A DNA stretch of 64,000 bases. Source: Dehalococcoidia bacterium (GTDB lineage Bacteria; Chloroflexota; Dehalococcoidia; GIF9; AB-539-J10). Numbering within the stretch: position 1 is the first letter of the stretch; each line of letters opens with the position of its first letter. Below are positions 14,195 to 52,182 of the stretch, one piece after another. The DNA is taken from assembly GCA_049671165.1 (NCBI GenBank), contig JBATUN010000021.1:35623-99622 (forward strand), written 5' to 3'. The notes beneath the pieces are model-generated. The model saw only the letters and a list, made by a program, of their open reading frames with translations, made no database searches and was not told the DNA's origin. The position numbers were made by a program, and so were the translations under genes.

Positions 14195-14231
14195 GCGAAG
14201 CCATAGTATAATAAGGCTGTGGCCAAGGAGA
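14195..14231. repeat. 37-bp copy of the polA promoter/5' end (gcgaagccatagtataataaggctgtggccaaggag)
   Basis: 33/37 identical to 16301-16337, which includes the polA GTG start. Confidence 0.55.
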
Positions 14232-14601
14232 TTGACAACTATACAAGTCAAGAACGGTCTAAATAGGGAGCTTATTACATGGATGCTATACCTAGGGAAA
14301 TGGCTCTGCAACTGTGTGCTGAAATCCGTGAGGAGAATCGTGGTAAGTGGTATAGATTTGCTCACATGCAGTGCTTGGGGCTGCATGACCTATGCTAAAG
14401 GGAACACTGACAAGATGTGTTTAAGTAGCTAGGAAGGTTATCGTGGCTGCAATCTAATCAACAAACGCTATGTCCAACGGTCGGCGGATTGATTAGGAGT
14501 TCGGGGCAGTTGCTCTGCCCTCTCGCTAAAGCCAATTTTCGCCCTGAATAGTAAATGGCTAAAAAGTTAAAGTGGGGCAAGCAAATTAGCGGAAGTGAAT
14601 C

Positions 14602-15171
14602 ATGTTGCCTATACCAGCCTCTGAGATAGGTGTCTGGAACGCCTGGATTTTCATGCTTGTTGATGCATTAACTATTCCTGTCTTCCTGCGTATTGTTAAA
14701 AATAGACAGTCACCCTCCCCAGACAAGGCAATGGCTGGCATGTCTAGGGTTGAGAAGATAATCCTCTACGCCTCAAAGGCAATGTTTGTTCCCGCCCTGA
14801 TATACTCTATTTTCCTGCCGTTAAAATTAGGGACGATGTGGTTCTACATAGGTCTGCCAATTACTTTAATAGGGTTAATTGCAGGCGTGATGGTCTTGGT
14901 GAATTGGGCTACTACCCCACCTGATGAGCCGGTTACCAGAGGACTATATCGTTATTCCAGACATCCAATGTATGTCGCCGCTTTTTTGACGTATGTAGGG
15001 TTGGGTATAGCCTGCGCTTCGTGGGTTTTTCTGTTGTTTGCTGTTGTATTTACAGTTGTTTCGTTTGTCTATGCCGATGCTGAAGAACAGCTAACTCTTG
15101 AGATGTACGGTGACCCGTATCGTGAATATATGAATAGGACCCCAAGATATATAGGGATACCGAAATCCTAA
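14602..15171 (+). CDS. isoprenylcysteine carboxyl methyltransferase (ICMT/PEMT) family membrane methyltransferase
   Basis: YRYSRHPMYVAAFL motif; multi-TM. Confidence 0.75.
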   Translation: MLPIPASEIGVWNAWIFMLVDALTIPVFLRIVKNRQSPSPDKAMAGMSRVEKIILYASKAMFVPALIYSIFLPLKLGTMWFYIGLPITLIGLIAGVMVLVNWATTPPDEPVTRGLYRYSRHPMYVAAFLTYVGLGIACASWVFLLFAVVFTVVSFVYADAEEQLTLEMYGDPYREYMNRTPRYIGIPKS

Positions 15172-15182
15172 TAAAGGAGGCC

Positions 15183-15623
15183 GTGAAAATTATGAGAGCT
15201 GATCCCAAGACAGAAGGCGCAGTGGTGAACATAGTCAAACAGGGCTTTGAAGCATTCACAAAAAGAGACTTGGATGCAGTTCTAGCGTTCTTCGCGCCAG
15301 ACCCTGATGTGGTTGTCATTGGTACGGGAGGGGATGAGAAATGCGTCGGGCTTGCCGAGATTAGGAACATATTCGAACGTGCCTTTGCGCAATTCGAGGA
15401 AGCATCTTTTAAGTTCGGTTGGCATTCAGTCTCAGCGGCAGGTTCAGTGGCATTGCTGGCAACTGATGTTACCCTCTACGTGAAGACCAGTGACCGGCAA
15501 ATAAGTGAGCAAGTACGATTAACGGTTGTGCTTGAGCAGCGGGGAGACAGATGGCTCATCATACAGTGGCATGATTCTTTGCCGGCTGCTGGGCAGAAAG
15601 ATGGTCAAGCATTCGCAACCTAG
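15183..15623 (+). CDS. NTF2-like / SnoaL-like (DUF4440) protein
   Basis: 146 aa; FEAFTKRDLDAVLAFFAPD...IGTG pattern typical of SnoaL-like fold. Confidence 0.65.
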   Translation: MKIMRADPKTEGAVVNIVKQGFEAFTKRDLDAVLAFFAPDPDVVVIGTGGDEKCVGLAEIRNIFERAFAQFEEASFKFGWHSVSAAGSVALLATDVTLYVKTSDRQISEQVRLTVVLEQRGDRWLIIQWHDSLPAAGQKDGQAFAT

Positions 15624-15702
15624 TCTTTCTAGAGACAATAGTCCGTTAGATTACAACGCGCGTATTTTTATTCGGAAGATGGAGAAAAGGAAGTAAAACA
15701 TC

Positions 15703-16299
15703 ATGTTGCTTGTACCCGCTTTTCAAATAGGTGTCTGGAACGCCTGGATTTTTGTGATTTGGCCGTGGGTAGATATGCTCGCAGTAAGGCTTGTTGGGTT
15801 AGATGTATATCGGAGAGCGTCAGGGCTACCTTCTGAAATGAAAACTAGCCATCGATACAGGGTAGTCAGCTATGTATCTATGGTAATAGAGACTATGGCT
15901 GTCGCGTATTCCATTTTTTTACCACTCAAATTAGGCACAATATGGTTCTATGCCGGTCTTGCCATTTTCTTAACAGGCCTGGTGGTGCTTACGGCTGCTA
16001 CAGTTAACTTTGCCAGGACACCGATGGATGTACCGATCACCAGGGGGATATACCATTATTCGAGACACCCATTGTATTTAGCGTCGTTGTTGATATATTT
16101 TAGCGTTGGCATAGCTTCAGCCTCGTGGGTCTTTCTGTTGATTTTTGTGGTACAGTCAGTCTCGATAAGAATTGCGGCAGTTGGAGAGGAACGCTTCTGC
16201 CTTGGGAAATATGGCGACGCCTATCGTGAGTATATGAATAAGACGCCGAGATGGATAGGAATACCGAAATCGGGAGGAAGTGATCGGCAGGCAATGTAG
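15703..16299 (+). CDS. ICMT-family membrane methyltransferase, paralog of 14602-15171
   Basis: Shares QIGVWNAWIF...YSRHPLY...RTPRWIGIPKS with its neighbour. Confidence 0.75.
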   Translation: MLLVPAFQIGVWNAWIFVIWPWVDMLAVRLVGLDVYRRASGLPSEMKTSHRYRVVSYVSMVIETMAVAYSIFLPLKLGTIWFYAGLAIFLTGLVVLTAATVNFARTPMDVPITRGIYHYSRHPLYLASLLIYFSVGIASASWVFLLIFVVQSVSIRIAAVGEERFCLGKYGDAYREYMNKTPRWIGIPKSGGSDRQAM

Positions 16300-16300
16300 G

Positions 16301-16337
16301 GCGGAGCCATAGTATAATGAGGCTGTGGCCGAGGAAG
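16301..16337 (+). promoter_or_regulatory. polA promoter region (TATAAT at 16313-16318) running into the polA GTG start; second copy of the 37-bp repeat
   Basis: Direct repeat of 14195-14231. Confidence 0.45.
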
Positions 16338-19054
16338 AAAAACCGCTTTTGCTGCTCTTTGACGGCAATGCCCTGGTGCACCGCGCCTTTCATGCCCTGC
16401 CTCCGCTAACACAGCACAAGACCGGAGAGCTGGTAAATGCCGTCTACGGCTTTGCCAGTACCCTGCTCAAAGTAGTTGCTGATTTCAAGCCCACTCACTG
16501 GGCCATCGCCTTTGACCGTCCCACCCCGACCTTCAGACACGAAATGTTCGAGGAGTATAAGGCCCAGCGTCCGGCCACGCCTGAGGAATTGAAAAGCCAG
16601 ATAAAAAAGGTCCACCAGTTGGTGGAAGCTTTCCATATCCCCGTTTTTGAAATCGACGGCTTCGAGGCCGACGATGTCCTGGGCACGTTGAGCAGGCAGG
16701 CTGACGAGCAGGGCATTGAGACCATCATTGTTACCGGGGACAACGATATGCTGCAGTCTGTCTTGCCTCGAGTCAAAACCCTAGCTCCCAGGCGGACCTT
16801 CACCGACACCATCCTTTATGATGAAGAAACAGTAGAGCAGAAATATGGCATCAAGCCGGAACAACTCGCCGACCTGAAAGCGCTGGCCGGCGACGTCTCG
16901 GATAATATACCCGGTGTGCCGGGCGTCGGTGAGAAGACAGCCACTAAGTTACTTCAGCAGTACGGCAGTCTCCAGGCAATCTACGACCATATCGAAGACA
17001 TAACGCCGGCCAAGTTGCAGAACACGCTGCGCGAATATCGCACTCAGGCTTTCCAGAGCAAAGAGCTGTCCACAATAGTGAAAGATGTTCCTATCAAGCT
17101 GGACTTGAAAACCTGCCAGGTGAGCCACTATGACCGGAACGAGGTAGCCAGGCTTTTCCAGGAGCTTGAGTTCATTAACCTGCTTCCCAGGCTGCCCCAG
17201 ATGAAAGCTGAGGGCTCCCCCTCGGTAGGCGCAGGTCTTGTACCCGCGCACCCATCGGCAGTCAGGAGCCAAATAGTGAACAGCGAAACAGACTTGGAAC
17301 AGCTTGTAGGCGAACTGGAAAAAGCACAGGACCTTGCTATCGAAGTTGAGACTACTGGCGAAAAGGCTATGATGGCAGGTTTGATAGGGATGGCCATATC
17401 GCCAGGCCGAAGGGAGGCGTTCTATATACCTCTGGGCCACCAGGGTTTAAATCAGCCGCCGCAAATGCCGCTAGCCCAGGTCACAGCCCGGCTCAAACCA
17501 GTTTTGGAAAACGCCAGTGTAGGCAAGGTTGCCCATAACGGCAAGCATGTTATAGCGGTACTGGCTGGGTGCAGTGTGAAGCTTGAGAATTTGAATTTCG
17601 ACTCCATGCTCGCCGCTTATCTCCTGGGTGAAAAGAATCTAGGTCTTAAAGCTTTGGCCTTTAATAAACTGGGCGTCGAGCTTACAGCCCCCGCTGAATT
17701 AACCGGCACAGGAAAGAAACAAAGCTCCCTGGCCCTGCTAGACGCGAACCGAGTTGCCGGCCATGCCTGCGCCAGCGTGGATATCCTTTGGAGCCTAAAA
17801 GAGACTTTGGAAGCCGAGCTACGACAGCAAGGCTTGGGGCGGCTTTTCACCGAAGTAGAGATGGCTTTGGTCCCAGTGTTAGTAGCTATGGAAGATAATG
17901 GCATTCTTCTGGATACCGACCTGCTCCGTGAGATGTCCCTGGAGATGGGTAAGGAGCTGCTGAGGCTGGAGAAGGAAATCTATGGCAGCGTCGGGCACCA
18001 GTTTAATATCAACTCGCCCCAGCAATTGGGCAAGGTGCTTTTTGAGGACCTCAGGCTGCCCCAGTCCCGCAGAACGAAGACCGGCTATTCCACCGAAGCC
18101 TCGGTCATGGAAGCGTTGAGAGGCGTTCATCCCGTAATCGAATTCATACTGCAATACCGCCAGCTCAGTAAGCTCAAGTCAACCTATGTTGATGCCCTGC
18201 CCGCGCTTGTTAACCGTAAGACGGGGAGGGTGCACACCACCTTCAACCAGACAGGCACGACTACCGGCCGGCTTTCCTCCAGCGACCCCAACCTCCAGAA
18301 TATACCTATAAGGACTGAGATGGGGAATAAGATAAGAAAGGCCATCATAGCTCCGCCCGGGACATACCTTCTAAGTGCCGACTACTCCCAGATTGACCTC
18401 AGAGTCCTGGCTCACCTCTCTCAAGACTCCGGCCTCATTGCCGCCTTTGCCCGGGACGAGGATATACATGCCACGACCGCCTCTAAGCTCTTCGGCATCC
18501 CCAATGATGCAGTGACTCCCGAGATGCGCCGGAATGCCAAAACGGTCAATTTTGGAGTTATTTATGGTATGAGCGATTACGGATTGGAGCAAGCTACCAA
18601 TCTCAGCCGGGAGGAAGCCGCCCAATTCATCGCCCTGTATTTCGAGAAATATCCCAAGGTGAAGGCATATCTCGAGGCAACCAAGGAACAAGCTAGGAAG
18701 ATGGGCTATGTGCAAACAGTGTTGGGGAGGCGACGGTTCCTGCCCGAAATTAATTCTTCCAACCGGATGGTCAGGGAGGCGGCCGAGCGCATGGCTATAA
18801 ATGCCCCGGTGCAGGGCAGCTCTGCCGATATCATAAAAATCGCCATGATAAATCTGTACCGGGAAATGAAGAAGCGGGATCTGAAGAGCAAGATGTTGTT
18901 ACAAATACACGACGAATTGCTGTTCGAGGTGCCGGAGGGTGAGGTGGAGGAAATAAAGTCCCTGGTCAGCGAGCTTATGCCCCATGCCTTCGAGCTTTGT
19001 GTTCCTGTGAAGATAGACATCAAGCTGGGCAAGAACTGGGCCGAGATGGGATAG
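16325..19054 (+). CDS. polA: DNA polymerase I
   Basis: 909 aa; 5'-3' exonuclease N-domain (LLLFDGNALVHRAFHAL), 3'-5' exo domain, Klenow polymerase motifs (RRxAKxxNFGxxYG, HDEL). Confidence 0.95.
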   Translation: MAEEEKPLLLLFDGNALVHRAFHALPPLTQHKTGELVNAVYGFASTLLKVVADFKPTHWAIAFDRPTPTFRHEMFEEYKAQRPATPEELKSQIKKVHQLVEAFHIPVFEIDGFEADDVLGTLSRQADEQGIETIIVTGDNDMLQSVLPRVKTLAPRRTFTDTILYDEETVEQKYGIKPEQLADLKALAGDVSDNIPGVPGVGEKTATKLLQQYGSLQAIYDHIEDITPAKLQNTLREYRTQAFQSKELSTIVKDVPIKLDLKTCQVSHYDRNEVARLFQELEFINLLPRLPQMKAEGSPSVGAGLVPAHPSAVRSQIVNSETDLEQLVGELEKAQDLAIEVETTGEKAMMAGLIGMAISPGRREAFYIPLGHQGLNQPPQMPLAQVTARLKPVLENASVGKVAHNGKHVIAVLAGCSVKLENLNFDSMLAAYLLGEKNLGLKALAFNKLGVELTAPAELTGTGKKQSSLALLDANRVAGHACASVDILWSLKETLEAELRQQGLGRLFTEVEMALVPVLVAMEDNGILLDTDLLREMSLEMGKELLRLEKEIYGSVGHQFNINSPQQLGKVLFEDLRLPQSRRTKTGYSTEASVMEALRGVHPVIEFILQYRQLSKLKSTYVDALPALVNRKTGRVHTTFNQTGTTTGRLSSSDPNLQNIPIRTEMGNKIRKAIIAPPGTYLLSADYSQIDLRVLAHLSQDSGLIAAFARDEDIHATTASKLFGIPNDAVTPEMRRNAKTVNFGVIYGMSDYGLEQATNLSREEAAQFIALYFEKYPKVKAYLEATKEQARKMGYVQTVLGRRRFLPEINSSNRMVREAAERMAINAPVQGSSADIIKIAMINLYREMKKRDLKSKMLLQIHDELLFEVPEGEVEEIKSLVSELMPHAFELCVPVKIDIKLGKNWAEMG

Positions 19055-19281
19055 GTTAATAAATCCCAAATCCTACTATCCAAATCCTAAGCAAATTCAA
19101 AAGTCAAAGGCCAAAACAAGGCACACCTCGACACAAGCTCGGGTAAAGGGATTGTCATGAATCTTGTGTTATGATGTGGGGGAGGAGAGGTGATCAGGAA
19201 AGGATTGATGGATGAGATTGACGGGAAAAGGCAGCTTGATTTGGAGTCTGTGCTCGGCGAGGCATTGACAGAAAGGACGGC

Positions 19282-19971
19282 ATGATGAGCAAAGCAGTGG
19301 CCATAAATGGTAGCCCTCGAATGGAACGAGGGAATACAGCGATGGTTCTTAATCCTTTCGTTGAGGGCATGATGGATGCCGGGTCCCATGTCGAGCTGTT
19401 CTACGCGAGCCGCCTCAAAGTCAAGCCGTGCGCTTGCGGGACTATGTACTGCTGGACTGAGATGCCCGGAGAATGTTGCATCAAGGATAAGATGGAGCTG
19501 CTCTATCCAAGGCTGAAGGAGTCAGATATTCTTGTCCTGGCCACCCCGGTTTACATCCCCCTGCCTGGCGACATGCAGAACATCATAAACAGGCTTTGTC
19601 CTTTGCTTGATCCGGTGCTCGAGTTTCGCAAGGGACGCACGCGGGCGATATTTCGCAAGGATGGCCGGATCCGAGCAATCGTGCTTGTCTCCACGGGTGG
19701 CTGGTGGGAGAAAGGAAATTTTGGAACGGTAGTGCGTATCGTCAAAGAGCTCGCTGAAGATGCCAGTGTGAACTTCGCCGGGGCGGTGCTCCGACCGCAT
19801 GTCCACGCCATGAGACGGAAAGGAGAATTGACGCAGGACGGCAGAGCTGTTCTGAACGCAGTGCGAAAAGCGGGCTATGAGTTGGTCAAAGACGGTGCGA
19901 TGAAGCGGGAGACCCTCGCGGCGGTAAGCCGCCCGCTTATCTCCCGGGCCGAATTCTGGCGTGAATGGTGA
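19282..19971 (+). CDS. NADPH-dependent FMN reductase-like flavoprotein (iron-sulfur flavoprotein family)
   Basis: Flavodoxin-like AINGSPR...ATPVY pattern with Cys cluster CACGTMYC. Confidence 0.65.
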   Translation: MMSKAVAINGSPRMERGNTAMVLNPFVEGMMDAGSHVELFYASRLKVKPCACGTMYCWTEMPGECCIKDKMELLYPRLKESDILVLATPVYIPLPGDMQNIINRLCPLLDPVLEFRKGRTRAIFRKDGRIRAIVLVSTGGWWEKGNFGTVVRIVKELAEDASVNFAGAVLRPHVHAMRRKGELTQDGRAVLNAVRKAGYELVKDGAMKRETLAAVSRPLISRAEFWREW

Positions 19972-20079
19972 GCATCGTAAGTCTGAGTGTATTGCCGAGG
20001 GAGTTCGATCCTGGCTCCAGACCTGCTCGATGGAATGGCCGATTGAGTTATTGATGCCGTATTGCCACGCTAACCTGAA

Positions 20080-20199
20080 ATGCCGGAGCTACCTGAGGTA
20101 GAAACGATCAGGAACGAGCTTGCGCCCTGGATCGTGGGGCAAAGCTTCGCTCAGGTCACTATCCCCGATTCTGAGCTGGTGTGTGTTGTTTTGCTATGA
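20080..20199 (+). pseudogene. fpg 5' fragment (first ~35 codons, MPELPEVETIRNELAPWIVGQSF...) ending in a premature stop
   Basis: ~85% nt identity to the 5' end of the intact fpg at 21062; 39-aa ORF. Confidence 0.7.
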
Positions 20200-20231
20200 T
20201 GTGAATGAGGCAGGCAAGGAGGAGAGAGCCG

Positions 20232-20867
20232 ATGGATGAAATCAGTGTCAAGAATGTTACACAAGAGAACGTAGATGACCTGTGCCGGGTGTGTGTCACA
20301 TCCTGCGTAAGAGATGACCCTGACTGGATAAGAGGCGCGGCAGACAAAAAGAAATGGGCTGCTGAGATGTTACCCAAATGGGGTTCATTCGCCAAGGTAG
20401 CCTACGAGAATCGCAATCCAGCGGGGATGATTCAGTACCGGCCGTCTCCCGAGGAACGAGTTGTTCGTATTGACTGCATTTATGTCCCCGTTCAGAGTTG
20501 CTGGGGGAAAGGGATTGCAAGCCGGCTCTTGGGCAGCCTGATGGAAGATGTGCAAAAACCAATGAGCTGGTTCGATAATAGGCGACCATTGGCACTCGTG
20601 ACCACGACGTTTCCCGGCGGAGCCCCCGAACAATATACAGCCCGGGAGTTCTTCACCAGAAAAGGCTTCAAGCAGATAGGGGAAGACCCTGATTATCTGT
20701 ATTACCCTCTGCAGCCAGGTTTTGTCTACAAGCCTGCTGCCAAGAAAGAAGTAAGGTATGTTCCCCAGGATGAAGATAGGGATAAGGTTGTGATTGTTTG
20801 CGGCCCTGATTACTGCCCTGCCACCTACCCTTATTTTCTCAAGAGAATGGAGAGGTACGTCAGATAA
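20232..20867 (+). CDS. GNAT-family N-acetyltransferase-like protein
   Basis: AGGAGG ribosome-binding site before ATG 20232; IDCIYVPVQSCWGKGIASRLL resembles GNAT motif A. Confidence 0.55.
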   Translation: MDEISVKNVTQENVDDLCRVCVTSCVRDDPDWIRGAADKKKWAAEMLPKWGSFAKVAYENRNPAGMIQYRPSPEERVVRIDCIYVPVQSCWGKGIASRLLGSLMEDVQKPMSWFDNRRPLALVTTTFPGGAPEQYTAREFFTRKGFKQIGEDPDYLYYPLQPGFVYKPAAKKEVRYVPQDEDRDKVVIVCGPDYCPATYPYFLKRMERYVR

Positions 20868-21061
20868 ATATACCCGGACGTTCCTATCAGGTGGATAGAC
20901 TCGTCTGAAGAACCTGAAGAGCCAAGAAAGCGCAATATTGGTGTCGGGACCTGTATCGTGAATGCTAAGCTCATCAAATCCTATGTCCTTGACAAAGATA
21001 ACTTCCAGAAGGAAGTAAAGGCAGCGCTCGAGTAGAAGGGGCTCGACAGGGGGACCGAGAG

Positions 21062-21889
21062 ATGCCGGAACTGCCTGAGGTAGAGACCATCAAGAACGAG
21101 CTTGCGCCCTGGGTCGTGGGGCAAAGCTTCACCAAAGTCACTATCTCTGATGCCAAGCTGGTGTGCGGTGGTTCTGCTCAGGAAGTCCGTCGCGGATTAA
21201 TCCGGCAGAAGATAGAAAGCCTGGGACGCCGGGGAAAGTATCTCATCTTTCACCTATCGAATGGCAGGTCACTGGTTATACATCTCAGGATGACCGGCAG
21301 CTTGCTGTTAAATCCCAAAGAGGTTGACCGCTATGCCCGGGCAGTTTTTCGCCTTTCCAACGGGCACCGCCTTGTTTTCAGTGACCGGCGCCGCCTGGGG
21401 GTGCTGTGGCTGGCAGACGATGCCGGTACTGTCGTTTGTAAGCTGGGTCCCGAGCCGCTGGATAAAGCCTTCACGCCGAACGTTCTGAAGCAAAGGCTAA
21501 GCTGGCATCACATCCCGATAAAAGCCGCGCTTCTCGACCAGCGTATCGTCGCTGGAATCGGCAATATGTATGCCGATGAAGCCCTCTTTGCCGCTCGTAT
21601 TCAGCCACTGAGGAAAGCAGACGACTTGTCGCCCAAAGAAGTACGAACTTTACATAATTGCATCCGCAGGATTCTTCGGGCAGCCATCGGCAGCAAAGGC
21701 GCCAGCGTGGATACCTACGTCCGCCCCGAAGGCGAGCTGGGCACAGCCCATTTCGATTTTAAGGTTGCTCATAAGGGAGGCGAACCCTGCCCCGTTTGCG
21801 GCAGCACCATCGAGCGGGTCGTGGTGCAAAACCGCGGCACTTACTTCTGCCCCCGATGCCAACGTCTCAAACCCGGGCACTCAAAATAA
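21062..21889 (+). CDS. fpg: formamidopyrimidine-DNA glycosylase (Fpg/MutM family)
   Basis: N-terminal MPELPEVE (catalytic Pro2/Glu3), H2TH, C-terminal CxxC...CxxC zinc finger; 275 aa. Confidence 0.9.
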   Translation: MPELPEVETIKNELAPWVVGQSFTKVTISDAKLVCGGSAQEVRRGLIRQKIESLGRRGKYLIFHLSNGRSLVIHLRMTGSLLLNPKEVDRYARAVFRLSNGHRLVFSDRRRLGVLWLADDAGTVVCKLGPEPLDKAFTPNVLKQRLSWHHIPIKAALLDQRIVAGIGNMYADEALFAARIQPLRKADDLSPKEVRTLHNCIRRILRAAIGSKGASVDTYVRPEGELGTAHFDFKVAHKGGEPCPVCGSTIERVVVQNRGTYFCPRCQRLKPGHSK

Positions 21890-22033
21890 GAGCTGACGGC
21901 GGCGGGATTTGCGCCAGCGACTAAGGGCTTCCCAACGCCTTGGCTCATCCTGCCGTATCTTTACCCTATGGGTAGCCTTGCCGATCCCCCAGCAAACCAC
22001 CCCGCTATCCTCAAGCTTCACTTAGCTAGCAAG

Positions 22034-22042
22034 TGGTATAAT
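22034..22042 (+). promoter_or_regulatory. extended -10 promoter element TGGTATAAT for the radical-SAM operon
   Basis: Perfect TGnTATAAT ~65 nt upstream of ATG 22108, with a GAGAGGAAA ribosome-binding site in between. Confidence 0.35.
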
Positions 22043-22107
22043 TTAGGAATAAGATTTAATCTACAAATTCATAAGATAGTTTGGACTTACGAAAAGAGAG
22101 GAAATAG

Positions 22108-23403
22108 ATGAGTGAACAGGGAGTCAAGCATATAACCGTGCCAGGACTCAGGCTACATCTCAGAAGGGATGATAACCACAGTATTCTCTGGATAAACAGC
22201 CAAAAAGTATTAATACTTAATACCACAGCGGCTGATTATGTCGAAGCATATATTGATGCTATGCGTTCTACCTCACAATTTGACCAATCGGTAGTCAAGT
22301 CTAAGATTGTAAAAGCAATAGAAGAGAAATACCCTACAGTCACTAAGGAGAGAATACTCAGCGACTTTGATACTTTGTATGCTCAAATACTTGCGATAGC
22401 TGAAAACAAATGTCCGGTTTATGACCTGGGAATTGGACAGCAAGTTATGGATATAAACAAACTAACGGCACCACCAAGAGTAGACCTGGCACTAACTTAT
22501 AGATGCAATAATAAATGTTCCTACTGCTATACAGGTGGCTCGCGTAAGACTAAGGAATTAGACACAACGGATTGGACACAAATACTTGATAAGCTTTGGA
22601 AAGCCGGGGTACCTCAAGTAGTATTTACCGGTGGAGAGCCTACGTTAAGAGACGACTTGGTCCCACTGGTGAGTCATGCTGAAGAGTTCGTGACTGGCTT
22701 GGTCACAAATGGACGTTTGCTACATAAGCTATCTAAGGGCTTAAAGGAGGTAAGCTTAGATTACGTTCAAGTTAGTATTGAATCCAATTCCCAGTCTATA
22801 CACGATGAGATGACGGGTGTGTCCAACTCCTGGGCGGAGACCGTAAATGGGATCAGGGCAGCAGAAAAAGAAGGTTCAAATGTCTACACCAATACTACCC
22901 TTACCAAGCGTAATGCGGACCATTTTACCTCTACTATGGAATTTCTAGCCTCCCTGGGGGTCAAAGGTATAGCTTGTAACAGTCTAATATGTAGTGGCTT
23001 AGGGTGTAAGGCAATTGAAAAGGATGGGCTAAGCGAGGAAACGTTAAAGGGCATTTTACAGGATGCCTGTGACAAAGCCAGAGAGCTAAAGATAGAGTTT
23101 AATTGGTATACCCCTACTTGTTATAAGAAGTTGAACCCCATAGATTTGGGCTTGGGAATAAAAAGCTGCTCGGCTGCTCAGTATAATGTAACCATTGAAC
23201 CAGATGGGACTGTTATTCCATGTCAGTCACTCTTCAACCACAAAATGGGGCATATTATGAAGGATAGCTGGGAAAAGATTTGGGGTAATGAGTTTGCGAA
23301 AAAGATTAGAAATCACTACTTCATCAGTGAGGAATGTAAGTCCTGTAGTTTTCTAGAGACTTGCGGAGGTAGCTGTCCTTTGGCGACCGGAGAATTGAAA
23401 TGA
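22108..23403 (+). CDS. radical SAM / SPASM-domain maturase with N-terminal PqqD-like RiPP recognition element
   Basis: N-terminal ~100 aa PGLRLHLRRDDNHSILWINSQKVLILNTTAADYVEAYIDAM (PqqD-like); CNNKCSYC (Cx3Cx2C); C-terminal Cys clusters CKSCSFLETCGGSCP (SPASM). Confidence 0.85.
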   Translation: MSEQGVKHITVPGLRLHLRRDDNHSILWINSQKVLILNTTAADYVEAYIDAMRSTSQFDQSVVKSKIVKAIEEKYPTVTKERILSDFDTLYAQILAIAENKCPVYDLGIGQQVMDINKLTAPPRVDLALTYRCNNKCSYCYTGGSRKTKELDTTDWTQILDKLWKAGVPQVVFTGGEPTLRDDLVPLVSHAEEFVTGLVTNGRLLHKLSKGLKEVSLDYVQVSIESNSQSIHDEMTGVSNSWAETVNGIRAAEKEGSNVYTNTTLTKRNADHFTSTMEFLASLGVKGIACNSLICSGLGCKAIEKDGLSEETLKGILQDACDKARELKIEFNWYTPTCYKKLNPIDLGLGIKSCSAAQYNVTIEPDGTVIPCQSLFNHKMGHIMKDSWEKIWGNEFAKKIRNHYFISEECKSCSFLETCGGSCPLATGELK

Positions 23404-43678: not shown

Positions 43679-44002
43679 CTAATTACTCGAACCTTTGAAC
43701 AGCAATACCACCCCTATTATTAATGCGGCTATAGGAGATACGAGGTAGAGGATGAATTCAGTAGGCCCGAGAAGGTCTTTAAGCATCACGGCACCAACTA
43801 TCCAGCCTAATGTGAAGACAATCCCCGAGAATCTGAAAGTGAAGAATAAAACGATTGATGCTAAAAAGCCCACAACTGTAAACAGAATAACTAGAAATGA
43901 CGGTATGAGTCCCTCTTCAGCGAAAGCAGCTAATAGAGCGCTGATTATGATGCCACCTATGATACCTGTTACAGCTTCAACAAAACCTCGTTGAAAGTTC
44001 AT
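43679..44002 (-). CDS. hypothetical membrane protein
   Basis: 107 aa, three TM segments. Confidence 0.4.
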   Translation of the reverse strand: MNFQRGFVEAVTGIIGGIIISALLAAFAEEGLIPSFLVILFTVVGFLASIVLFFTFRFSGIVFTLGWIVGAVMLKDLLGPTEFILYLVSPIAALIIGVVLLFKGSSN

Positions 44003-44075
44003 CTTAGTACCTCCTCTTTGTTTTGATAATATATCTTAGCAGATGATTTGCAAGGAAAACAAGTCATAAAAGAAG

Positions 44076-44089
44076 TGGCAGCGGCTGAT
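44076..44089 (-). repeat. truncated tRNA-Met 3'-end remnant e
   Basis: tggcagcggctga. Confidence 0.45.
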
Positions 44090-44102
44090 TGCTAGATCTC
44101 AA

Positions 44103-44306
44103 TTATATATACCCAACAGCCACCAATACTCCAACAACGATAACAATTACTCCGACAATCTGGTGGAAACGATATATATTATCGCCCCATAGTATCTTTG
44201 AGCGAGCAACTATTAACCGATAGATAAAGAAATCGCTTTTTAATCTGCCGCAGACCAGTAAGAACAGGCCTGCCAAAACTATCAAAATACCCCATAGTAA
44301 GTGCAT
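44103..44306 (-). CDS. hypothetical small membrane protein (67 aa)
   Basis: Two TM segments. Confidence 0.35.
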   Translation of the reverse strand: MHLLWGILIVLAGLFLLVCGRLKSDFFIYRLIVARSKILWGDNIYRFHQIVGVIVIVVGVLVAVGYI

Positions 44307-44439
44307 TCTCCCTCCCCTAACCAGTTATATGAAGGGTTATTCTGGACGCTTCGTCATTATTTAAATAACAATCCATCAAATGCTGATTTTGGGCATTTTA
44401 ACCCAGTGGCTACGCAAAAAGACTAAACAAATAAACAAA

Positions 44440-44511
<72 letters not shown>

Positions 44512-45230: not shown

Positions 45231-45251
45231 AAGTGAAAATCAATCTGAGGT

Positions 45252-45937
45252 GTGAAGGAATCCTTTCCTTCACAAGTTCAAGTTGTAGCAGAGGGAATGG
45301 ATACTCTGTCCTCAAAATGAGGTATTATCCACATCTTAAGGGCATGGTTTATGGCACCATACAAATCATTCCCTGAAAAAGAGCACCTCTATTTTGTGAC
45401 TAGCTCAATTGTTGGTCACAAATACCTTTTTCACAAGCCCGAGTATGCTCAAATCATTCTTGATAGCTTGAGCTTCCTGCGAAGTCAGAGGAGAATTAAG
45501 CTTTATGCTTTTGTAATAATGCCTAACCATTTCCACTTGATTATCAAAGTACTTGGTGCTTCTAATATCTCGAAATTAGCCCACGACCTCAAACTATTTA
45601 CAGCAAATCAAATTATTAAGAGGTTGCAGACAAATAGAGAATTGCATTTGCTGGATTATTTTAAGCAGCAAGCCAAGGGCATTAAAAAACAGAAGCACAA
45701 AGTTTGGGAAACTGGATTTTGGGACAAAAACATCTTTTCGGAAAAATTTCTGCAAGAAAAGATGGAATACATTCACAACAACCCAATCAATAAGAACTGG
45801 TGTCTAGTTGAAGAGAGGTCAGAGTACCCTTTTTCCAGCGCCCGGTTTTATGACAAAGGAAAAGAGGCCATTGTTGATATTGATGATGTCCGAGAACTCG
45901 TGTGCTAATATGCTGGCGGGAATCCTTTCCCGCCAGC
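45252..45937 (+). mobile_element. IS200/IS605-like minimal element or REP/RAYT unit: tnpA flanked by hairpins sharing the core GGAATCCTTTCC
   Basis: Hairpins 45252-45273 (gtgaagga-atcctt-tccttcac) and 45912-45937 (gctggcggga-atcctt-tcccgccagc). Confidence 0.6.
45351..45908 (+). CDS. tnpA: Y1 HuH transposase (IS200-like / REP-associated tyrosine transposase)
   Basis: VIMPNHFHLII HuH motif; C-terminal EYIHNNP catalytic-Tyr motif. Confidence 0.75.
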   Translation: MAPYKSFPEKEHLYFVTSSIVGHKYLFHKPEYAQIILDSLSFLRSQRRIKLYAFVIMPNHFHLIIKVLGASNISKLAHDLKLFTANQIIKRLQTNRELHLLDYFKQQAKGIKKQKHKVWETGFWDKNIFSEKFLQEKMEYIHNNPINKNWCLVEERSEYPFSSARFYDKGKEAIVDIDDVRELVC

Positions 45938-45968
45938 CTCAAAAGGGTGACTTATTATTAAGGGTAGA

Positions 45969-46832
45969 ATGAAGATAGATTTGCACATCCATACCAAGAC
46001 CGGCTCGGATGGCAATCTCCCTATTGAAGAGGTTTTCCAAGAAGCCAAAAATAGAAACATCGATTTAATCTCGATAACTGACCACGATTCTATAGACTGC
46101 CAGGAAAGAGCTATCGCCCTGGCGAGAAAGCACGGCATGTCTTACATCACAGGGGTGGAATTAAACGTGACTTTCCATTATCCTGAGGGCAATAAAGATG
46201 TTTCCCTGGATTTCCTGGGATACGGGTATGACATCGGCAATCAAGAGCTAAAGAGCAAGCTTCAATTGATAAAAGAACACAGGAAAGGAAGGGCGCGCCA
46301 GATTTTAGAAAACCTGAACGTTGAGTTCGATAAAGAGGGTATTGAAAGATCTACCGAGGAAGACCTCAGGAAAATAGAGGATAGTGTAGACGGCGTGTTC
46401 GGGCGACCCCATATAGCGAACTACCTAAAGGAAAAGGGCATTGTAAAGGATAAGCAAGAGGCCTTCGATAAATATCTGGTCAAGTGCGATGTCCCCAAGT
46501 ACCCACTCTCTCTGGCTGAAGCATCAAAGCTGATCAGGAACGCCGGCGGTATGCTGGTACACGCCCACCCCAATGACCCCAACGGAACATCCCTGGCAAG
46601 CATAACTCATGATTTGGACGAGCAAACGAGGGTCATAGAAAAATATATGCTAAAATACATCGATGGTGTCGAGTGCTGGCATACGAGACATGACGAAAAA
46701 ACCACAGCACACTATATTGAATTTGCCAGAAAGCACAATATGCTCATGACCGGCGGCAGTGATTGTCATCAAAAACCGCTTCTTATGGGCACATTGGATA
46801 TACCTGATTGGGTTGCTGAACAGTTCAGCTAA
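45969..46832 (+). CDS. PHP-domain metal-dependent phosphoesterase
   Basis: MKIDLHIHTKTGSDG...ISITDHD. Confidence 0.8.
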   Translation: MKIDLHIHTKTGSDGNLPIEEVFQEAKNRNIDLISITDHDSIDCQERAIALARKHGMSYITGVELNVTFHYPEGNKDVSLDFLGYGYDIGNQELKSKLQLIKEHRKGRARQILENLNVEFDKEGIERSTEEDLRKIEDSVDGVFGRPHIANYLKEKGIVKDKQEAFDKYLVKCDVPKYPLSLAEASKLIRNAGGMLVHAHPNDPNGTSLASITHDLDEQTRVIEKYMLKYIDGVECWHTRHDEKTTAHYIEFARKHNMLMTGGSDCHQKPLLMGTLDIPDWVAEQFS

Positions 46833-48125: not shown

Positions 48126-49340
48126 ATGCCGAATAGCTTTAACCAGTCGGATTCCTATTTAGCCACTGCGGAGTGCGTCACCGAGGGACATCCTGATAAG
48201 CTGTGCGACCAGATTTCAGACGCTATCCTCGACGCCATGCTGGAACAGGACCCCTTTGCCCATGTAGCCTGCGAAGTCTCTGTGGCCATGGGCATGGTCA
48301 TAGTTCTTGGTGAGGTTACCTGCAAGGGTTACGTGGAGATTCCGGACATCGTGCGCCAAGTAATCAAAGAGGCAGGCTATACCAAACCTGAATATGGCTT
48401 TGATTATCGGACCTGTGGAATCATGGTTTCCCTCAAGGGACAGTCAAGCGACATTGCTGCCGGAGTTGATCAATCTTTGGAAACAAGAACAGGAGAGGCA
48501 ACCGACGAAGTCTTAGACAAAACCGGCGCCGGTGACCAGGGAATGATGGTTGGCTTTGCCTGTAGAGAAACACCTGAGCTCATGCCTTTGCCTGTTGCAC
48601 TGGCGCACAAGCTATGCCGGCGCTTGGCTCAGGTAAGAAAAGAGGGGATCGTGCCTTATCTGAGGCCCGATGGTAAGTCCCAGGTGACTATAGAATACAC
48701 CCGTGGCATACCCAAGAGGGTGGTCTGTGTTGTTATCGGTGCTCATCACGACCCGGGAGTGGAACGTAAAATTATGGAGCATGACCTTATAGAGCAGGCG
48801 ATTAAGAAGGTCATTCCTGCCAACTTGCTGGATAACGAGACTGAATACTACATCAACAGCGCCGGCCAGTTTGTCATCGGTGGGCCGGTGAGCGACACCG
48901 GTTTCACCGGGCGCAAAATCATTGCCGATACTTACGGCAGTGCCTGTGGACATGGTGGAGGCTCTTTTTCAGGCAAAGACCCTACTAAGGTAGACCGCTC
49001 CGCTGCTTATATGGCTAGATATGTTGCCAAGAATATTGTAGCTGCCGGACTTGCTGATTACCTCGAGCTTCAGGTTGCCTATACTATCGGAAAAGCTTAT
49101 CCCCTGTCATTATCCATCGAGACATTCAGCACAGGACAGGTCCCTGATGAAGTCATATCAAATCTCGTCAACAAGCATTTCGACTTCCGTCCCGAGGCTA
49201 TCATAAGGACTTTGGACCTGCGCCGGTCTATTTACCGCCAAACTGCTACTTATGGACACTTCGGCAGAGAAGACCTCGACTTTCCCTGGGAGAGAACGGA
49301 TAAGGCCGAAATCCTAAGAAAAGAAGCGGGCCTGCAATAG
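48126..49340 (+). CDS. metK: S-adenosylmethionine synthase
   Basis: [24 protein letters not shown]. Confidence 0.95.
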
Positions 49341-49371
49341 CCCAGACCACAGGACGGAGTCAAGACCCCCC

Positions 49372-49388
49372 GCAGGACCATGTCCTGC
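49372..49388 (+). terminator. weak hairpin after metK (gcaggac-cat-gtcctgc)
   Basis: 7-bp stem; no clear U-tract. Confidence 0.25.
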
Positions 49389-49603
49389 CTTAATAATTCA
49401 TCAGTTCGTGCATTGCTAAGATTACGTATGTTTGAGCATAATGTGGTACATAATGTGGTATAATTGGAAGGCTAACCTAGAACCTCAATGGGCACCTGAG
49501 TGATCGGGAGTGAACCAGTGTGGACAAAGCTGTTATAGCGTGCCTCTATCTTAACTGCTCGGAGGCGGACTTTGTGTTTTTGTATTTGGCGAGATGAGGT
49601 CAC

Positions 49604-50557
49604 ATGAGTTTGATACAGGTGGATGATTTAGCCAAAAGTTATGGCAGGGTGGTTGCTGTGGATGGGCTCTCTTTGAGGGTGGAGGAGGGCAGCATTATGG
49701 GGCTCATAGGTCCCAACGGCGCTGGAAAAACCACCGCAATAAAGATAATCTTGGGCTTGCTTAAGCAGGATAGGGGGTTTGTCAGGGTTTTTGACGAGGA
49801 ACCATGGGACAACCCGGATATCAAACCGAAGATAGGAGTAATCTATGAAAGAGCCTACTTCCCATCCCGTCATAAGGTATTCGACTACCTGAAGAGGGTG
49901 TGTAGGATCTTTGGCAAACCTGAGTCCCGAGCCCGTGAAGTTTTAGCTTTGACGAGACTTGAGGATGCCCATGACAGAACCATAAAAGCGTTGTCGGCCG
50001 GGATGCTCCAAAAGTTCGCCGTAGCCCATGCCCTGATCAAAGAGCCGCGTCTCATCATTGCTGATGAACCTACATCAAACCTTGACCCTGAGGCCAGGAG
50101 AGAGTTGTTAGATTTAATCCTGAAACTTCACCGCGACGAAAATGTAACTTTTCTCATCTCCTCGCACGTACTTCCTGAGTTGAGCAGAGTTTGTGAATCC
50201 GTGGCGATAATTAATGAGGGCAAGGTCTGGGCCGCGGGAAGCTTGACGGAACTTTCGGAGAAGCTTGGAACCAGAACTACGAGGATAGCTACTGATAATC
50301 CTGAGGCGCTTGGAGAGCTGGTAAGAAAACTGGAATATGTTAACCGGGTGGAAGTAGATAGCAGGGGAGTTTCTGTAGGTGTGCTTGCCGGCGAAGATGA
50401 AAGGCTTTACGAAGACGTTCCCAGACTTGCTAAGAAAGCAGAGGCCAAAATTGTGGGAATAGAGACCGGAACTGCTTCCCTTGAAGAACTCTTTAGACTG
50501 GCCGTTAAGTCCGGACAAGGAGAAGGTCATAGATGGGAAAAGGCCGACCATTCTTAG
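49604..50557 (+). CDS. ABC transporter ATP-binding protein
   Basis: Walker A GPNGAGKTT, LSAGMLQK signature, Walker B IIADEPT. Confidence 0.9.
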   Translation: MSLIQVDDLAKSYGRVVAVDGLSLRVEEGSIMGLIGPNGAGKTTAIKIILGLLKQDRGFVRVFDEEPWDNPDIKPKIGVIYERAYFPSRHKVFDYLKRVCRIFGKPESRAREVLALTRLEDAHDRTIKALSAGMLQKFAVAHALIKEPRLIIADEPTSNLDPEARRELLDLILKLHRDENVTFLISSHVLPELSRVCESVAIINEGKVWAAGSLTELSEKLGTRTTRIATDNPEALGELVRKLEYVNRVEVDSRGVSVGVLAGEDERLYEDVPRLAKKAEAKIVGIETGTASLEELFRLAVKSGQGEGHRWEKADHS

Positions 50558-51336
50558 AAATCTTCACCTATGCCCTCGATGAAGATTACAGGTTCCCGAT
50601 CCTGGAGATTTTTGCTTTCCTTTTCGCACTGGGGACATTTGTCTTCGCGGATTTTGCGTTGTTATACGGCCAGACTGGAGAAGCCCTCGCGTACAGCTTG
50701 GTTAGCACTTTATGTGGATTTCCGCTTTTGTTCATCTTTGTGGTCTTAATTCTAAAGAACGTGGCCTACGGTCTGGGTGGCGATTTGGACAAAGGTGTGA
50801 TGCAAACCCTGTTCTCATATCCTTTGAAGAGGCGATACATTCTCACGGCAAAACTTCTCTCAGGTTTAGGCATAGCGTTGCTCTTATTCTTGGGAATCCA
50901 GATTTTTGGTCTCTTTCTGTTAGCCCCGAATGTCATTCTCACCTATCCCGGCACGGTTTTCTTGACCTATGCTGCTAATCTCTGTAGCCCGGCACTTTTG
51001 CTGGCTGGTCTCGTGCTGCTTTTGACTTTACGACTGAAACGAGGGGGACTCGCTGTCGTCATCGGATTCGTTCTTTTCCTTGCGGGGTTGGTAGTCTCTG
51101 GATTGGTGACCTCCATCGCTTACGGAACAGGCTCCGATGTGGCCCTAAAAATCTGGGCTGTAATCAACCCTAACTCAGCTCTCCAGTATTATCATATGGG
51201 CGCAGTAGGTTTTCCCTCTGAAACTTGGGTTCCGAGCTTTTCCGAGGTCCTCATTTACTTGGGGGCAGGATACCTGATCGTGGCTGCGATTTTCACCGCT
51301 GGATACATCTACTTCGAGAGGAGATTGGAAATATGA
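50533..51336 (+). CDS. ABC-2-type transporter permease
   Basis: Six hydrophobic segments; overlaps the ATPase stop. Confidence 0.6.
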   Translation: MGKGRPFLEIFTYALDEDYRFPILEIFAFLFALGTFVFADFALLYGQTGEALAYSLVSTLCGFPLLFIFVVLILKNVAYGLGGDLDKGVMQTLFSYPLKRRYILTAKLLSGLGIALLLFLGIQIFGLFLLAPNVILTYPGTVFLTYAANLCSPALLLAGLVLLLTLRLKRGGLAVVIGFVLFLAGLVVSGLVTSIAYGTGSDVALKIWAVINPNSALQYYHMGAVGFPSETWVPSFSEVLIYLGAGYLIVAAIFTAGYIYFERRLEI

Positions 51337-52019
51337 GGTGGATAACTCTGCTGGGGAGAATAGGCACCGTAATTTTAGCGATAGGCTTAGCTCTCCTCAT
51401 CGCCTGGCTCATCCCCTCAGGTAGCGGATCTTGGTCTGGGTGGAGTCAGCCTATCGAGCCTGAACAATATATAATTGAGAGGTTAGGGGTTTATTCGCCT
51501 CAAACTGGATTTCAAATCTCCGTGGAGTCTACCGATAACATCCGCGTTTATCTCCTCGGAGTAAACTCAGTTGAACTCGATAACTGGAGAACATCGGTTA
51601 GGGAGGCATATCCTGATTTAGATGATATGTGGATTAGAATCTTTACCGTGCCGCTGATTTTTGTTAGGGAAGCATATCCCGATTTAGATGATCCTCAAAT
51701 CGAGGATATCATGGATATCGTGTGGAACGTATCCGTCTTAGACAAGGGTCTGCAAACACACCCTGAGATTATCTTGTGGGACCCGCCTCCGAGCAGCTCG
51801 TTTTCCCACGAGTTGTTTCCAGCGGATACCCTTGACATCATGGCCGTAGTTGCCAATCCATCCTCTAATACGGTGGAAGTCGAAACGAGGATAACGGATT
51901 TAACAGCGCTCGCACCAAAAGAGAGGGTTATCCTCCCAGCCATATTGCTCATTTCAATAGGCATTGCGTTAGCCATTCCATGGTTAATCTCGAGAAAAGT
52001 AAAAAAGAGCACCTTCTGA
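51333..52019 (+). CDS. hypothetical exported/membrane-anchored protein; start reassigned to ATG 51333 (ATGA overlap with the permease stop)
   Basis: MRWITLLGRIGTVILAIGLALLIAWL signal/TM; C-terminal TM; internal REAYPDLDD duplication. Confidence 0.5.
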   Translation: MRWITLLGRIGTVILAIGLALLIAWLIPSGSGSWSGWSQPIEPEQYIIERLGVYSPQTGFQISVESTDNIRVYLLGVNSVELDNWRTSVREAYPDLDDMWIRIFTVPLIFVREAYPDLDDPQIEDIMDIVWNVSVLDKGLQTHPEIILWDPPPSSSFSHELFPADTLDIMAVVANPSSNTVEVETRITDLTALAPKERVILPAILLISIGIALAIPWLISRKVKKSTF

Positions 52020-52074
52020 TAGAGGGCAACTTTCGTCTTGGGTACCGTAAAGACATTAGGTTTGCGACGCCCCA

Positions 52075-52182
52075 TTTACCGCCAAACTGCTACCTATGGA
52101 CACTTTGGGAGGGAAGACCTCGACCTTCCCTGGGAGAGAACGGATAAGGCCGAAATCCTAAGAAAAGAAGCAGGCTTGTAGA
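52075..52182 (+). pseudogene. duplicated metK 3' end (~36 codons, ...[35 protein letters not shown])
   Basis: ~93% nt identity to 49231-49340. Confidence 0.75.

Follow-up and report, generated by a model that had tools for sequence, protein, structure and literature searches.

Small cassettes between duplicated gene ends and tRNA-Met fragments in a flexible island region of an uncultured Dehalococcoidia lineage

In a 64,000-nucleotide stretch of DNA from a Dehalococcoidia bacterium (GenBank assembly GCA_049671165.1, contig JBATUN010000021.1, positions 35,623 to 99,622; the whole stretch is here called the window), a conserved gene backbone is interrupted by many small cargo cassettes that are bounded by duplicated ends of the adjacent genes. 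Within an uncultured lineage of Dehalococcoidia, the region makes up an "additive" system of flexible islands, i.e., a dense and integrase-poor form of the known additive genomic islands. It was probably formed by serial site-specific integration of small cassettes, which lacked an integrase or had mostly been stripped of it, carried surrogate gene ends and were later blurred by gene conversion. In this process, cassettes of 0.35-4 kb with one to five genes would have entered the termini of genes, time and again and at fixed points. Every insert would bring its own copy of the interrupted gene end, thereby keeping the target gene intact, and the old end would remain beyond the cargo as a diverged direct repeat.

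Backbone and cargo genes were annotated by Pfam scans of all major open reading frames (ORFs) of the 64 kb, and the window was compared with metagenome loci (labelled L001-L180; proteins are labelled P0221 and P0223). The relatives comprise about 100 independently assembled Dehalococcoidia metagenome contigs, from samples held at JGI, ENA and NCBI. MetK assigns the source organism to Dehalococcoidia, Fpg has more than 100 relatives at 81-88% identity, and a metagenome scan with the AAA_33 kinase yielded 80 relatives at 84-93% identity. Five loci centred on fpg were also compared (L001, L087, L089, L090 and variants).

The backbone order common to the relatives is PolX, Rce1, HGSNAT, polA, fpg, flavodoxin and beta-CASP, followed further on by tRNA-Met, AAA_33, PHP, AdoHcyase, MetK and M48. 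Sites matched through this backbone hold different cargo in different relatives, and some are empty, which agrees with the view of a preliminary description of the window that this is a high-plasticity region with repeated insertion at gene termini. That description had listed six gene-end duplications bounding cargo (polA 5', fpg 5' and 3', flavodoxin 5', tRNA-Met 3' and metK 3'). All six are present where they were placed, and the count was too low, since the PHP 5' end, the flavodoxin/beta-CASP junction and six tRNA-Met 3' fragments, which all have one orientation, belong to the same list. The duplications reported there span 36-336 nt with identities of 81-92%. Comparison of the window with itself gave nine direct repeat pairs and one inverted pair, and the cargo has a G+C content of 0.42-0.46, compared with about 0.51-0.57 in the backbone. 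The features of the window are collected in Table 1.

From the fpg stop codon to tRNA-Met(CAT), the region is one large cassette array. The array repeat consists of the last 24 nt of tRNA-Met, i.e., the T-arm and the acceptor strand, and less often of the last 36-54 nt. A scan by Hamming distance for this 24-nt end, with at most seven mismatches, gave seven matches on one strand of the window and none on the other; tRNA-like 3' halves are also found at 21894 and 24756, in the copies of the fpg 3' end. Rfam detected no RNA family besides tRNA in the window. Among the 80 AAA_33-anchored relatives, nearly all long loci carry 2-8 tRNA-Met 3' fragments per 10 kb, on a single strand. In 127 distinct fragments, conservation is 80-99% at positions 1-23, about 50% at position 24 and 40-60% beyond; 66% stop exactly at 24 nt, and the others extend to 30-54 nt, towards the anticodon loop. 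The T-stems of several of the window's fragments are broken.

When the window cassettes were mapped on 21 relatives, the same units were found in varying order, copy number and presence, with tRNA fragments between them. The reordered units comprise flavodoxin, DUF454, beta-CASP, PrsW, DUF6512, SBP, MerR, the hydrolase-DUF4870-DUF2807 group, c88, the small membrane ORFs and GNAT. Among the relatives, MerR forms a discrete cassette with at least seven left and at least six right neighbours, and every one of its junctions lies inside the 24-nt repeat, TGGCAGCGGCTGGATTTGAACCA. Its occurrence beside so many neighbours is indirect evidence of excision to a circle and re-integration. At the flavodoxin/beta-CASP junction, where the window holds the DUF454 cassette, the two genes abut in L089 without DUF454, and L001 has a tRNA fragment. 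Junctions that are fixed, short and sharply bounded argue for site-specific recombination, because neither random deletion nor RecA-dependent exchange would produce them, and at the tRNA-Met sites the action of a tyrosine recombinase is well supported. The array has an intact tRNA at one boundary together with direct repeats of its 3' part, as in tRNA-targeted islands. Repeats of the 3' end of this one tRNA recur between strain-variable blocks, as in additive islands. The window cassettes are bounded by attachment (att) sites and contain no genes for recombination or transfer, as in cis-mobilisable elements (CIMEs).

The preliminary description had stated that the cassettes lack a resident integrase. 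This holds for intact genes: the Pfam scans of all major ORFs in the 64 kb revealed no intact tyrosine or serine recombinase, and the sole transposase-like match was a weak one to Y1_Tnp. It does not hold for remnants, as two fossils of one XerC/D-like tyrosine recombinase, a 3' and a 5' piece, are found at cassette boundaries. When about 100 related loci were searched (phmmer/hmmsearch) with the lambda, P2 and phiC31 integrases, no integrase was identified; for 111 non-core ORFs, a Pfam scan lists only the 25 commonest families, so that single integrases could escape it. The same phage-integrase searches uncovered a conserved C-terminal integrase remnant (…NGGDSLMLQRLLGHTTLMMTNRYCQAVGCYD…) directly after tRNA-Met in several relatives, and tblastn located it in at least 20 loci including the window. 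Database matches of the remnant peptide were restricted to short ORFs of 34-92 amino acids (aa). Only a representative search with an 82-aa remnant led to P0223, a 314-aa XerC/D-like integrase (PF00589, PF13495), whose family has 349 full-length members at 70-92% identity in Chloroflexota metagenomes and no relatives among viral contigs.

In three lineages (L176, L179 and L180), a full-length integrase is found amid tRNA fragments 1.5-3.5 kb downstream of tRNA-Met(CAT) and is oriented as the tRNA. L179 holds an apparently intact element of 10.8 kb (8444-19268), bounded by perfect 46-bp att repeats that correspond to the tRNA 3' part. In L176, the seven copies of the tRNA end (the gene and six fragments) all carry the resident T-arm/acceptor allele and are 96-100% identical to each other. 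These data link the integrase to tRNA-Met, and the array cassettes, which behave as discrete units, would recombine at the tRNA-derived repeat, the likely enzyme being an XerC/D-like tyrosine recombinase of the P0223 family. Because the window retains this integrase only as 3' and promoter/5' fossils, its cassettes would be non-autonomous and moved in trans from elsewhere in the genome, or else reduced from integrase-bearing elements such as that in L179. Movement in trans is suggested by the reordering of the cassettes and by the existence of this integrase family.

Other observations concern the integrase gene and its neighbours. The L179 element carries, besides the integrase, KAP NTPase, SLFN_AlbA_2, TrmB and AAA_25 genes, a cargo with a defence-like look. 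The integrase gene has been hollowed out repeatedly: in the window, its promoter and first codons drive GNAT, in L093 and L132 a small membrane ORF is lodged between integrase 5' and 3' pieces, and in P0221 an internal part of the integrase is deleted. Another tyrosine recombinase, unrelated to this one, has left a C-terminal remnant (…HDLRHTFASVMLL…LGH…Y) in L138 (1936-2226), where it faces a tRNA fragment at 1810 in a lambda-like arrangement. A split integrase of the SSV type, with the att site inside the gene and separate Int(N) and Int(C) halves, was considered and rejected: homology of the full-length gene to the tRNA-adjacent remnant begins only at the NGGD codons, 31 nt past the tRNA, and does not run through the tRNA, and the similarity search yielded no N-terminal halves.

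The same anatomy is seen at the ends of protein genes. At polA, two 36-nt copies of the 5' end, 92% identical, enclose a cassette that is absent from four relatives (L001, L087, L089 and L090), in which HGSNAT adjoins polA. Copy 1 is contiguous with the HGSNAT-side homology to these empty sites, and alignment of the insertion with all four reveals an attL/attR-like arrangement around a 38-nt shared segment. The two PEMT/DUF1295-type paralogues of this cassette, which flank the SnoaL-like gene, are about 70% identical over 250 nt and 87% identical at the 5' end; in L090, PEMT-type cargo also lies downstream of fpg, and in L139 it is part of the tRNA array. In the gap between polA and fpg, the relatives hold DUF3795 or an antitoxin with ParE, and the FMN-reductase cargo of the window has no homolog in the fetched loci.

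Both ends of fpg are duplicated, with 83% identity between the 5' copies and 81% between the 3' copies. The displaced 3' copy ends in the tail found in the relatives, CQPLGRGPLI, and the working gene has a different one, CQRLKPGHSK, which indicates that the working tail is a surrogate brought by the cassette. The fpg stop codon is directly followed by a tRNA-Met-like 3' half on the strand of the tRNA; in a local alignment of the fpg 3' segment with tRNA-Met, the observed score was reached by 0 of 300 shuffles. As the fpg 3' site thus carries a tRNA-Met-like att, a tyrosine recombinase would have acted there as well. L001 has three copies of the fpg 3' end with different cargo between them, and in the fpg-centred relatives 8-10 kb of other genes separate fpg from flavodoxin. 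The radical SAM/SPASM gene and the 394-aa ORF beside it (no Pfam match), possibly a peptide-maturation pair, recur with 87% identity in L090 (18913-20828), there 9 kb from fpg at another array position. The defence-type cassette that follows in the window has no homolog in any fetched relative.

The same data bear on the idea that gene ends were duplicated in tandem, locally and independently, and diverged without any imported cargo. Although the PEMT paralogues (14602 and 15703) and the pair of membrane-ORF modules beside flavodoxin do resemble local duplicates, the cargo bears no relation to the flanking genes, has a lower G+C and varies between relatives at a given site. Of the two fpg tails, the displaced one is ancestral and the working one foreign, and the same cassette occurs in several flank backgrounds. 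Such duplication is a very improbable origin of the region.

At flavodoxin, two units lie in series. The 5' copies (31128-31172 and 31892-31936) are 84% identical, and a 336-nt module with a membrane ORF is duplicated at 92% identity (28874-29209 and 31166-31501). The layout reads integrase fossil, TTGACAG, membrane ORF, amine oxidase and flavodoxin 5' end, TTGACAG, membrane ORF, spacer and flavodoxin 5' end, TTGACAG, and the remainder of flavodoxin. Recombination at a 7-nt core would account for it, and so would unequal exchange at a microhomology.

The insert at the PHP gene resembles IS200/IS605 elements, as judged from a weak match to Y1_Tnp (E=1.3e-7) and two hairpins read from the sequence, and is flanked by an imperfect duplicate of the PHP 5' end. 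IS200/IS605 elements encode a Y1 HUH transposase, have subterminal hairpins and make no target duplication; their transposition leaves no flanking duplicate of a gene end. Relatives L106, L112, L115 and L120 carry the insert, whereas L095 and L008 lack it; the PHP site of L095 is empty.

At metK, the two 3' copies are 83-86% identical and the cassette between them, with an ABC ATPase, is present in five relatives and absent in at least nine. It occurs in three downstream backgrounds, each of which is also known without the cassette. Among genomes of the window's clade with a complete metK, 8 of 17 (the window counted) have a partial 3' copy, with two kinds of cargo and with a start at residue 359-365; the more distant L007 has a weaker copy starting at residue 368. 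Of the differences between the metK copies, 12 of 19 fall at third codon positions, a bias which indicates that both evolved as working ends. Past the metK stop codon, some 75 nt (49341-49415) are conserved in most relatives, regardless of what comes next, and are missing where M48 is immediately downstream of metK. They may form a terminator, encode a small RNA or belong to an att arm.

A non-coding module of 40-157 nt near NMO/HapK (window 8143-8325) recurs in inverted orientation at 22004-22043, just past the fpg 3' copy, and a module of this type also stands at a cassette end in L001 (12011-12167). The module may mark another cassette site at about 8.1-8.9 kb.

Table 1. Backbone genes, cassettes, duplicated gene ends and remnants in the window (positions of the window; "backbone" denotes a gene of the conserved order).
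Feature	Position	Strand	Content and remarks
HGSNAT-like gene	13350-14126	-	backbone; Pfam
polA 5' copy 1	14194-14229	+	-10 box and first 11 nt of coding sequence; stays on HGSNAT side
polA-5' cassette	14230-16299	+	PEMT 14602-15171, SnoaL 15183-15623, PEMT 15703-16299
polA 5' copy 2	16300-16335	+	working promoter and GTG start
polA	16325-19054	+	backbone; GTG start
polA-fpg gap cargo, variable	19055-20076	+	FMN reductase 19282-19971
fpg 5' partial copy	20077-20195	+	38 codons, open frame, 10 non-synonymous differences
GNAT cassette	20196-21058	+	GNAT 20205-20867
fpg 5' end of intact gene	21059-21178	+	
fpg	21062-21889	+	backbone; intact
fpg 3' end of intact gene with tRNA-Met-like 3' half	21727-21949	+	tRNA-like half 21894-21930, antisense; tail CQRLKPGHSK
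Radical SAM/SPASM cassette	21950-24588	+	radical SAM/SPASM 22108-23403, 394-aa ORF 23400-24584
Displaced fpg 3' end with tRNA-like fragment	24589-24811	+	fragment 24756-24792; zinc finger intact; tail CQPLGRGPLI
Defence-type cassette	24812-28787		Vsr, Dcm cytosine methylase, GmrSD_N (GmrSD-like type IV restriction enzyme), FRG; genes 24939-28499
Integrase 3' fossil	28788-28877	-	last ~30 codons, XerC/D-like, P0223 family; abuts TTGACAG junction at left end of first flavodoxin-5' unit
Flavodoxin-5' unit 1	28874-31172		membrane ORF 28899-29126 (-), amine oxidase 29355-30929 (-), flavodoxin promoter and 11 codons 31128-31172; ends TTGACAG
Flavodoxin-5' unit 2	31166-31936		membrane ORF 31188-31418 (-), 390-nt spacer, working promoter and 5' end (ATG 31903), up to TTGACAG
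Flavodoxin	31903-32382	+	backbone; true ATG 31903
DUF454 cassette	32383-32842	+	DUF454 ORF 32417-32809; degenerate tRNA-like fragment ~32813-32842
beta-CASP	32925-34337		backbone; Pfam
PrsW, DUF6512			backbone, after beta-CASP; Pfam
SBP_bac_5	36306-38084	-	backbone; Pfam
tRNA-Met 3' fragment	38308-38331	-	24 nt, 3 mismatches
MerR cassette	38332-38847	+	
tRNA-Met 3' fragment	38848-38870	-	
Hydrolase cassette	38871-42395		Bact_hydrolase, DUF4870, DUF2807; two small minus-strand ORFs
tRNA-Met 3' fragment	42396-42420	-	
Cassette of small membrane ORFs	42421-43010	-	
tRNA-Met 3' fragment	43011-43034	-	5 mismatches
GNAT and membrane-ORF cassette	43035-44075	-	GNAT 43035-43523, 107-aa membrane ORF 43679-44002
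Integrase 5' fossil	43516-43619	-	promoter, ribosome-binding site and first 11 codons (MSTTIKQAFGV*); upstream of GNAT, fused; DNA comparison
Stub of tRNA-Met 3' end	44076-44087	-	12 nt
tRNA-proximal cassette	44088-44439	-	small membrane ORF
tRNA-Met(CAT)	44440-44511	-	intact; array anchor; Rfam
AAA_33 kinase, PHP, AdoHcyase, M48 peptidase			backbone, beyond tRNA-Met; Pfam
Displaced PHP-gene 5' end	45233-45247	+	GTGAAAATCAATCTG
IS200/IS605-like insert	45248-45964	+	Y1_Tnp ORF 45351-45908; hairpins 45251-45272, 45913-45936
Surrogate PHP 5' end	45965-45983	+	ATGAAGATAGATTTG; ATG 45969; repeat pair 45233-45247 / 45969-45983
metK	48126-49340	+	backbone; intact
metK 3' end of intact gene	49196-49349	+	
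metK-3' cassette	49350-52039	+	ABC ATPase 49604-50557; two ORFs without Pfam match
Displaced metK 3' end	52040-52193	+	MetK residues 360-403; continuous with M48-side flank of empty sites

The source is a metagenome-assembled genome (MAG) and the repeats lie in a strain-variable region, which would favour an artefact of assembly from collapsed or chimeric strain variants; collapsed variants had been the alternative given in the preliminary description. Such an artefact is hardly conceivable. The copies are not identical: they have diverged by 8-19% and have different flanks, and empty and occupied sites align cleanly. The same architecture also recurs across samples and pipelines in independent JGI, ENA and NCBI assemblies, as exemplified by the three fpg 3' copies in L001, the metK copies in seven relatives and the one-strand tRNA fragments.

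A number of observations weigh against serial site-specific integration, and some of them favour a route that requires no integrase. In such a route, circular or linear DNA of related strains, carrying a gene end and cargo, would enter by a Campbell-type single crossover or by unequal exchange, and selection would keep those events that leave the gene intact; this applies mainly to the long repeats (fpg 5' and 3', metK 3' and the 336-nt module). With 120-336 nt at 81-92% identity, these repeats have a length sufficient for RecA. The metK copies within one genome share private variants, which indicates that gene conversion or homologous recombination acts on them, and the third-position bias (both copies having evolved as working ends) is also in line with this route. 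On the left, the copies of the fpg 3' end start at different distances from the stop codon (-246, -163 and -161 nt), and unequal exchange at the 7-nt TTGACAG microhomology can equally generate the flavodoxin structure, whose arrangement (B-O-B', P-O-B', P-O-P') is that expected from such exchange.

No intact integrase is found in the window, within 10 kb of fpg in five relatives or around AAA_33 and metK in 80 relatives, so that mobilisation in trans is a hypothesis, and no integrase lies near the long-repeat sites in any relative. No recombinase was detected beside the polA, fpg 5', flavodoxin, PHP and metK sites in 5-17 relatives, and neither an excised circle nor an empty-site read was observed. 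With respect to the integrase itself, the similarity search (tblastn) detects only C-terminal remnants, from residue 223 onwards, and never central parts. L174 (1-13000) has nine integrase 3' pieces (20-73 codons) on one strand, which separate small cassettes; tRNA-Met fragments were not detected there. The repeat of the L174 array appears to be the integrase 3' end. In L180, too, the integrase 3' end is duplicated. Simple decay does not predict such arrays, and the integrase 3' end is thus itself one of the duplicated gene ends.

As a general account, the integrase-independent route, although the main rival, is nevertheless unlikely. It leaves unexplained the repeats of 15-45 nt at 70-92% identity (PHP, tRNA, polA and flavodoxin), which are too short and too diverged for RecA-dependent insertion, as well as the sharp 24-nt boundary of the 127 fragments and the junctions inside the repeat. 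The metK boundary is constant despite different cargo, and the route would still require some further event to connect the cargo with a point inside a gene. Homologous recombination and gene conversion between repeats would instead have followed site-specific integration, homogenising copies and deleting or duplicating cassettes.

It may be asked whether all insertions go back to a single recombinase family whose specificity for gene termini is relaxed, as had been proposed in the preliminary description. The sites agree in their anatomy, each having a surrogate gene end and a displaced copy, the integrase family tied to tRNA-Met has left fossils in both the fpg-flavodoxin region and the tRNA array, and the same kinds of cargo (PEMT, GNAT, radical SAM) occur at different sites across genomes. 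However, a common att motif at all sites was rejected: local alignment of the tRNA with each duplicated segment beat the shuffles only at fpg 3', and at the polA, fpg 5', flavodoxin, PHP and metK sites no similarity to the tRNA att was seen, the fraction of shuffles scoring at least as high as observed being 0.08-0.69 (best strand). In addition, the remnant in L138 belongs to an unrelated recombinase, and the polA, fpg 5', PHP and metK cassettes have neither an integrase fossil nor a tRNA fragment inside. With the other sites devoid of a recombinase in 5-17 relatives, the proposal lacks support in its stated form, and a single family is quite improbable. The insertions at polA 5', fpg 5', flavodoxin 5', PHP 5' and metK 3' would most likely have followed the same route as those of the array, at other att sites and by as yet putative recombinases.

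A bolder extension of site-specific integration, possible if rather doubtful, is an integron-like system without attC. Here, one chromosomal XerC/D-like integrase beside tRNA-Met would move integrase-less cassettes in trans, the sole requirement in cis being a 24-nt mimic of the T-arm and acceptor strand. Sister cassettes would mimic the termini of protein genes (polA, fpg, flavodoxin, PHP, metK and the integrase gene) as landing pads, so that gene ends would be generally exchangeable and even housekeeping-like genes would travel.

Dehalococcoidia are abundant, streamlined and mostly uncultured subsurface bacteria in which gene exchange is poorly understood. The locus indicates that a tRNA and the termini of essential genes harbour their flexible genes as small, individually exchangeable cassettes, with surrogate ends that keep the targets working. 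If cassettes are indeed mobilised in trans by the tRNA-Met-linked integrase, they would constitute a second, independently evolved cassette-array system besides integrons, and the simple 24-nt site would make it possible to trace gene flow in metagenomes, and perhaps to engineer the organisms. In annotation, short ORFs that resemble gene ends or integrase C-termini are to be read as footprints rather than genes, and such repeats should not be equated with misassembly.

Among known systems, the closest parallels are seen in the additive islands of 'Ca. Methylopumilus', in which 20-bp repeats of tRNA-Lys separate blocks of 330 bp-42 kb (PMC10872708). In both cases the last ~20-24 nt of one tRNA are repeated in one orientation between variable blocks, most blocks have no integrase and the content varies among strains (PMC10872708); block sizes are also similar (0.35-4 kb here). 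Unlike those islands, the array described here extends into housekeeping-like genes (flavodoxin, beta-CASP and PrsW), its cassette order is shuffled, and the window also has five protein-gene end duplications, including 5' ends with surrogate promoters.

Tycheposons of Prochlorococcus and other marine and freshwater bacteria use few tRNA targets, among them tRNA-Met(CAT), and an XerD-like tyrosine recombinase (10.1101/2020.12.28.424599; PMC10872708). The likeness includes partial tRNAs scattered in islands, tandem integrations and degenerate remnants; in the window, tRNA-Met(CAT) is likewise the target and partial tRNAs lie within the island. The recombinases, XerD-like there and XerC/D-like (P0223) here, are likened by description. 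In contrast, the units here are mostly single-gene, and protein-gene-end targeting is not described for tycheposons in the text considered. The general Pfam scans of the window cassettes gave none of the tycheposon hallmarks, i.e., helicase, primase and excisionase.

In Dehalococcoides, islands lie in tandem downstream of ssrA, with a 20-bp 3' repeat, a CcrB-like serine recombinase (DsiB) and a 6-gene module; some lack the integration module, and their authors suggest cis-mobilisable elements and accretion (PMC3146451). They belong to the same bacterial class, are in tandem at one small-RNA gene and have an att repeat embedded in the integrase gene (PMC3146451). However, the target there is a tmRNA and the enzyme a serine recombinase, whereas here they are tRNA-Met and an XerC/D-like tyrosine recombinase, and the units are far smaller. 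The window has no tmRNA and no resolvase/recombinase Pfam match.

Phage 21/e14 in icd is an element that restores the end of a protein gene. Other gene-end-restoring elements are the islands at the dusA 5' end (PMC4482086) and SGI1 at the trmE 3' end (PMC8409611). Like the inserts in the window, elements of the dusA/trmE/icd type are inserted in a coding sequence near its terminus and supply a diverged replacement end, the old end being left as a direct repeat. They differ in having their own integrase and a size of 10-100 kb, whereas the inserts here measure 0.7-2.7 kb, have no integrase and occupy five sites within 38 kb.

With integrons, the array shares small, mostly integrase-less cassettes, a short recombination site between them, a strain-variable order and, in L176, L179 and L180, one tyrosine recombinase beside the array. 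The boundaries are tRNA-derived 24-nt repeats or gene-end copies and not the imperfect palindromes of the attC type, so that the comparison with attC/attI failed, although no integron-specific search was made. Unlike integron cassettes, those found here have their own promoters and lie in both orientations, and the integrase gene is located inside the array, oriented as the tRNA. Compared with all these systems, the Dehalococcoidia locus is unusual in its very small, modular cassettes, in an array that reaches into housekeeping-like genes, in an integrase gene that is hollowed out for cargo and in at least five protein-gene termini with surrogate ends within 38 kb.

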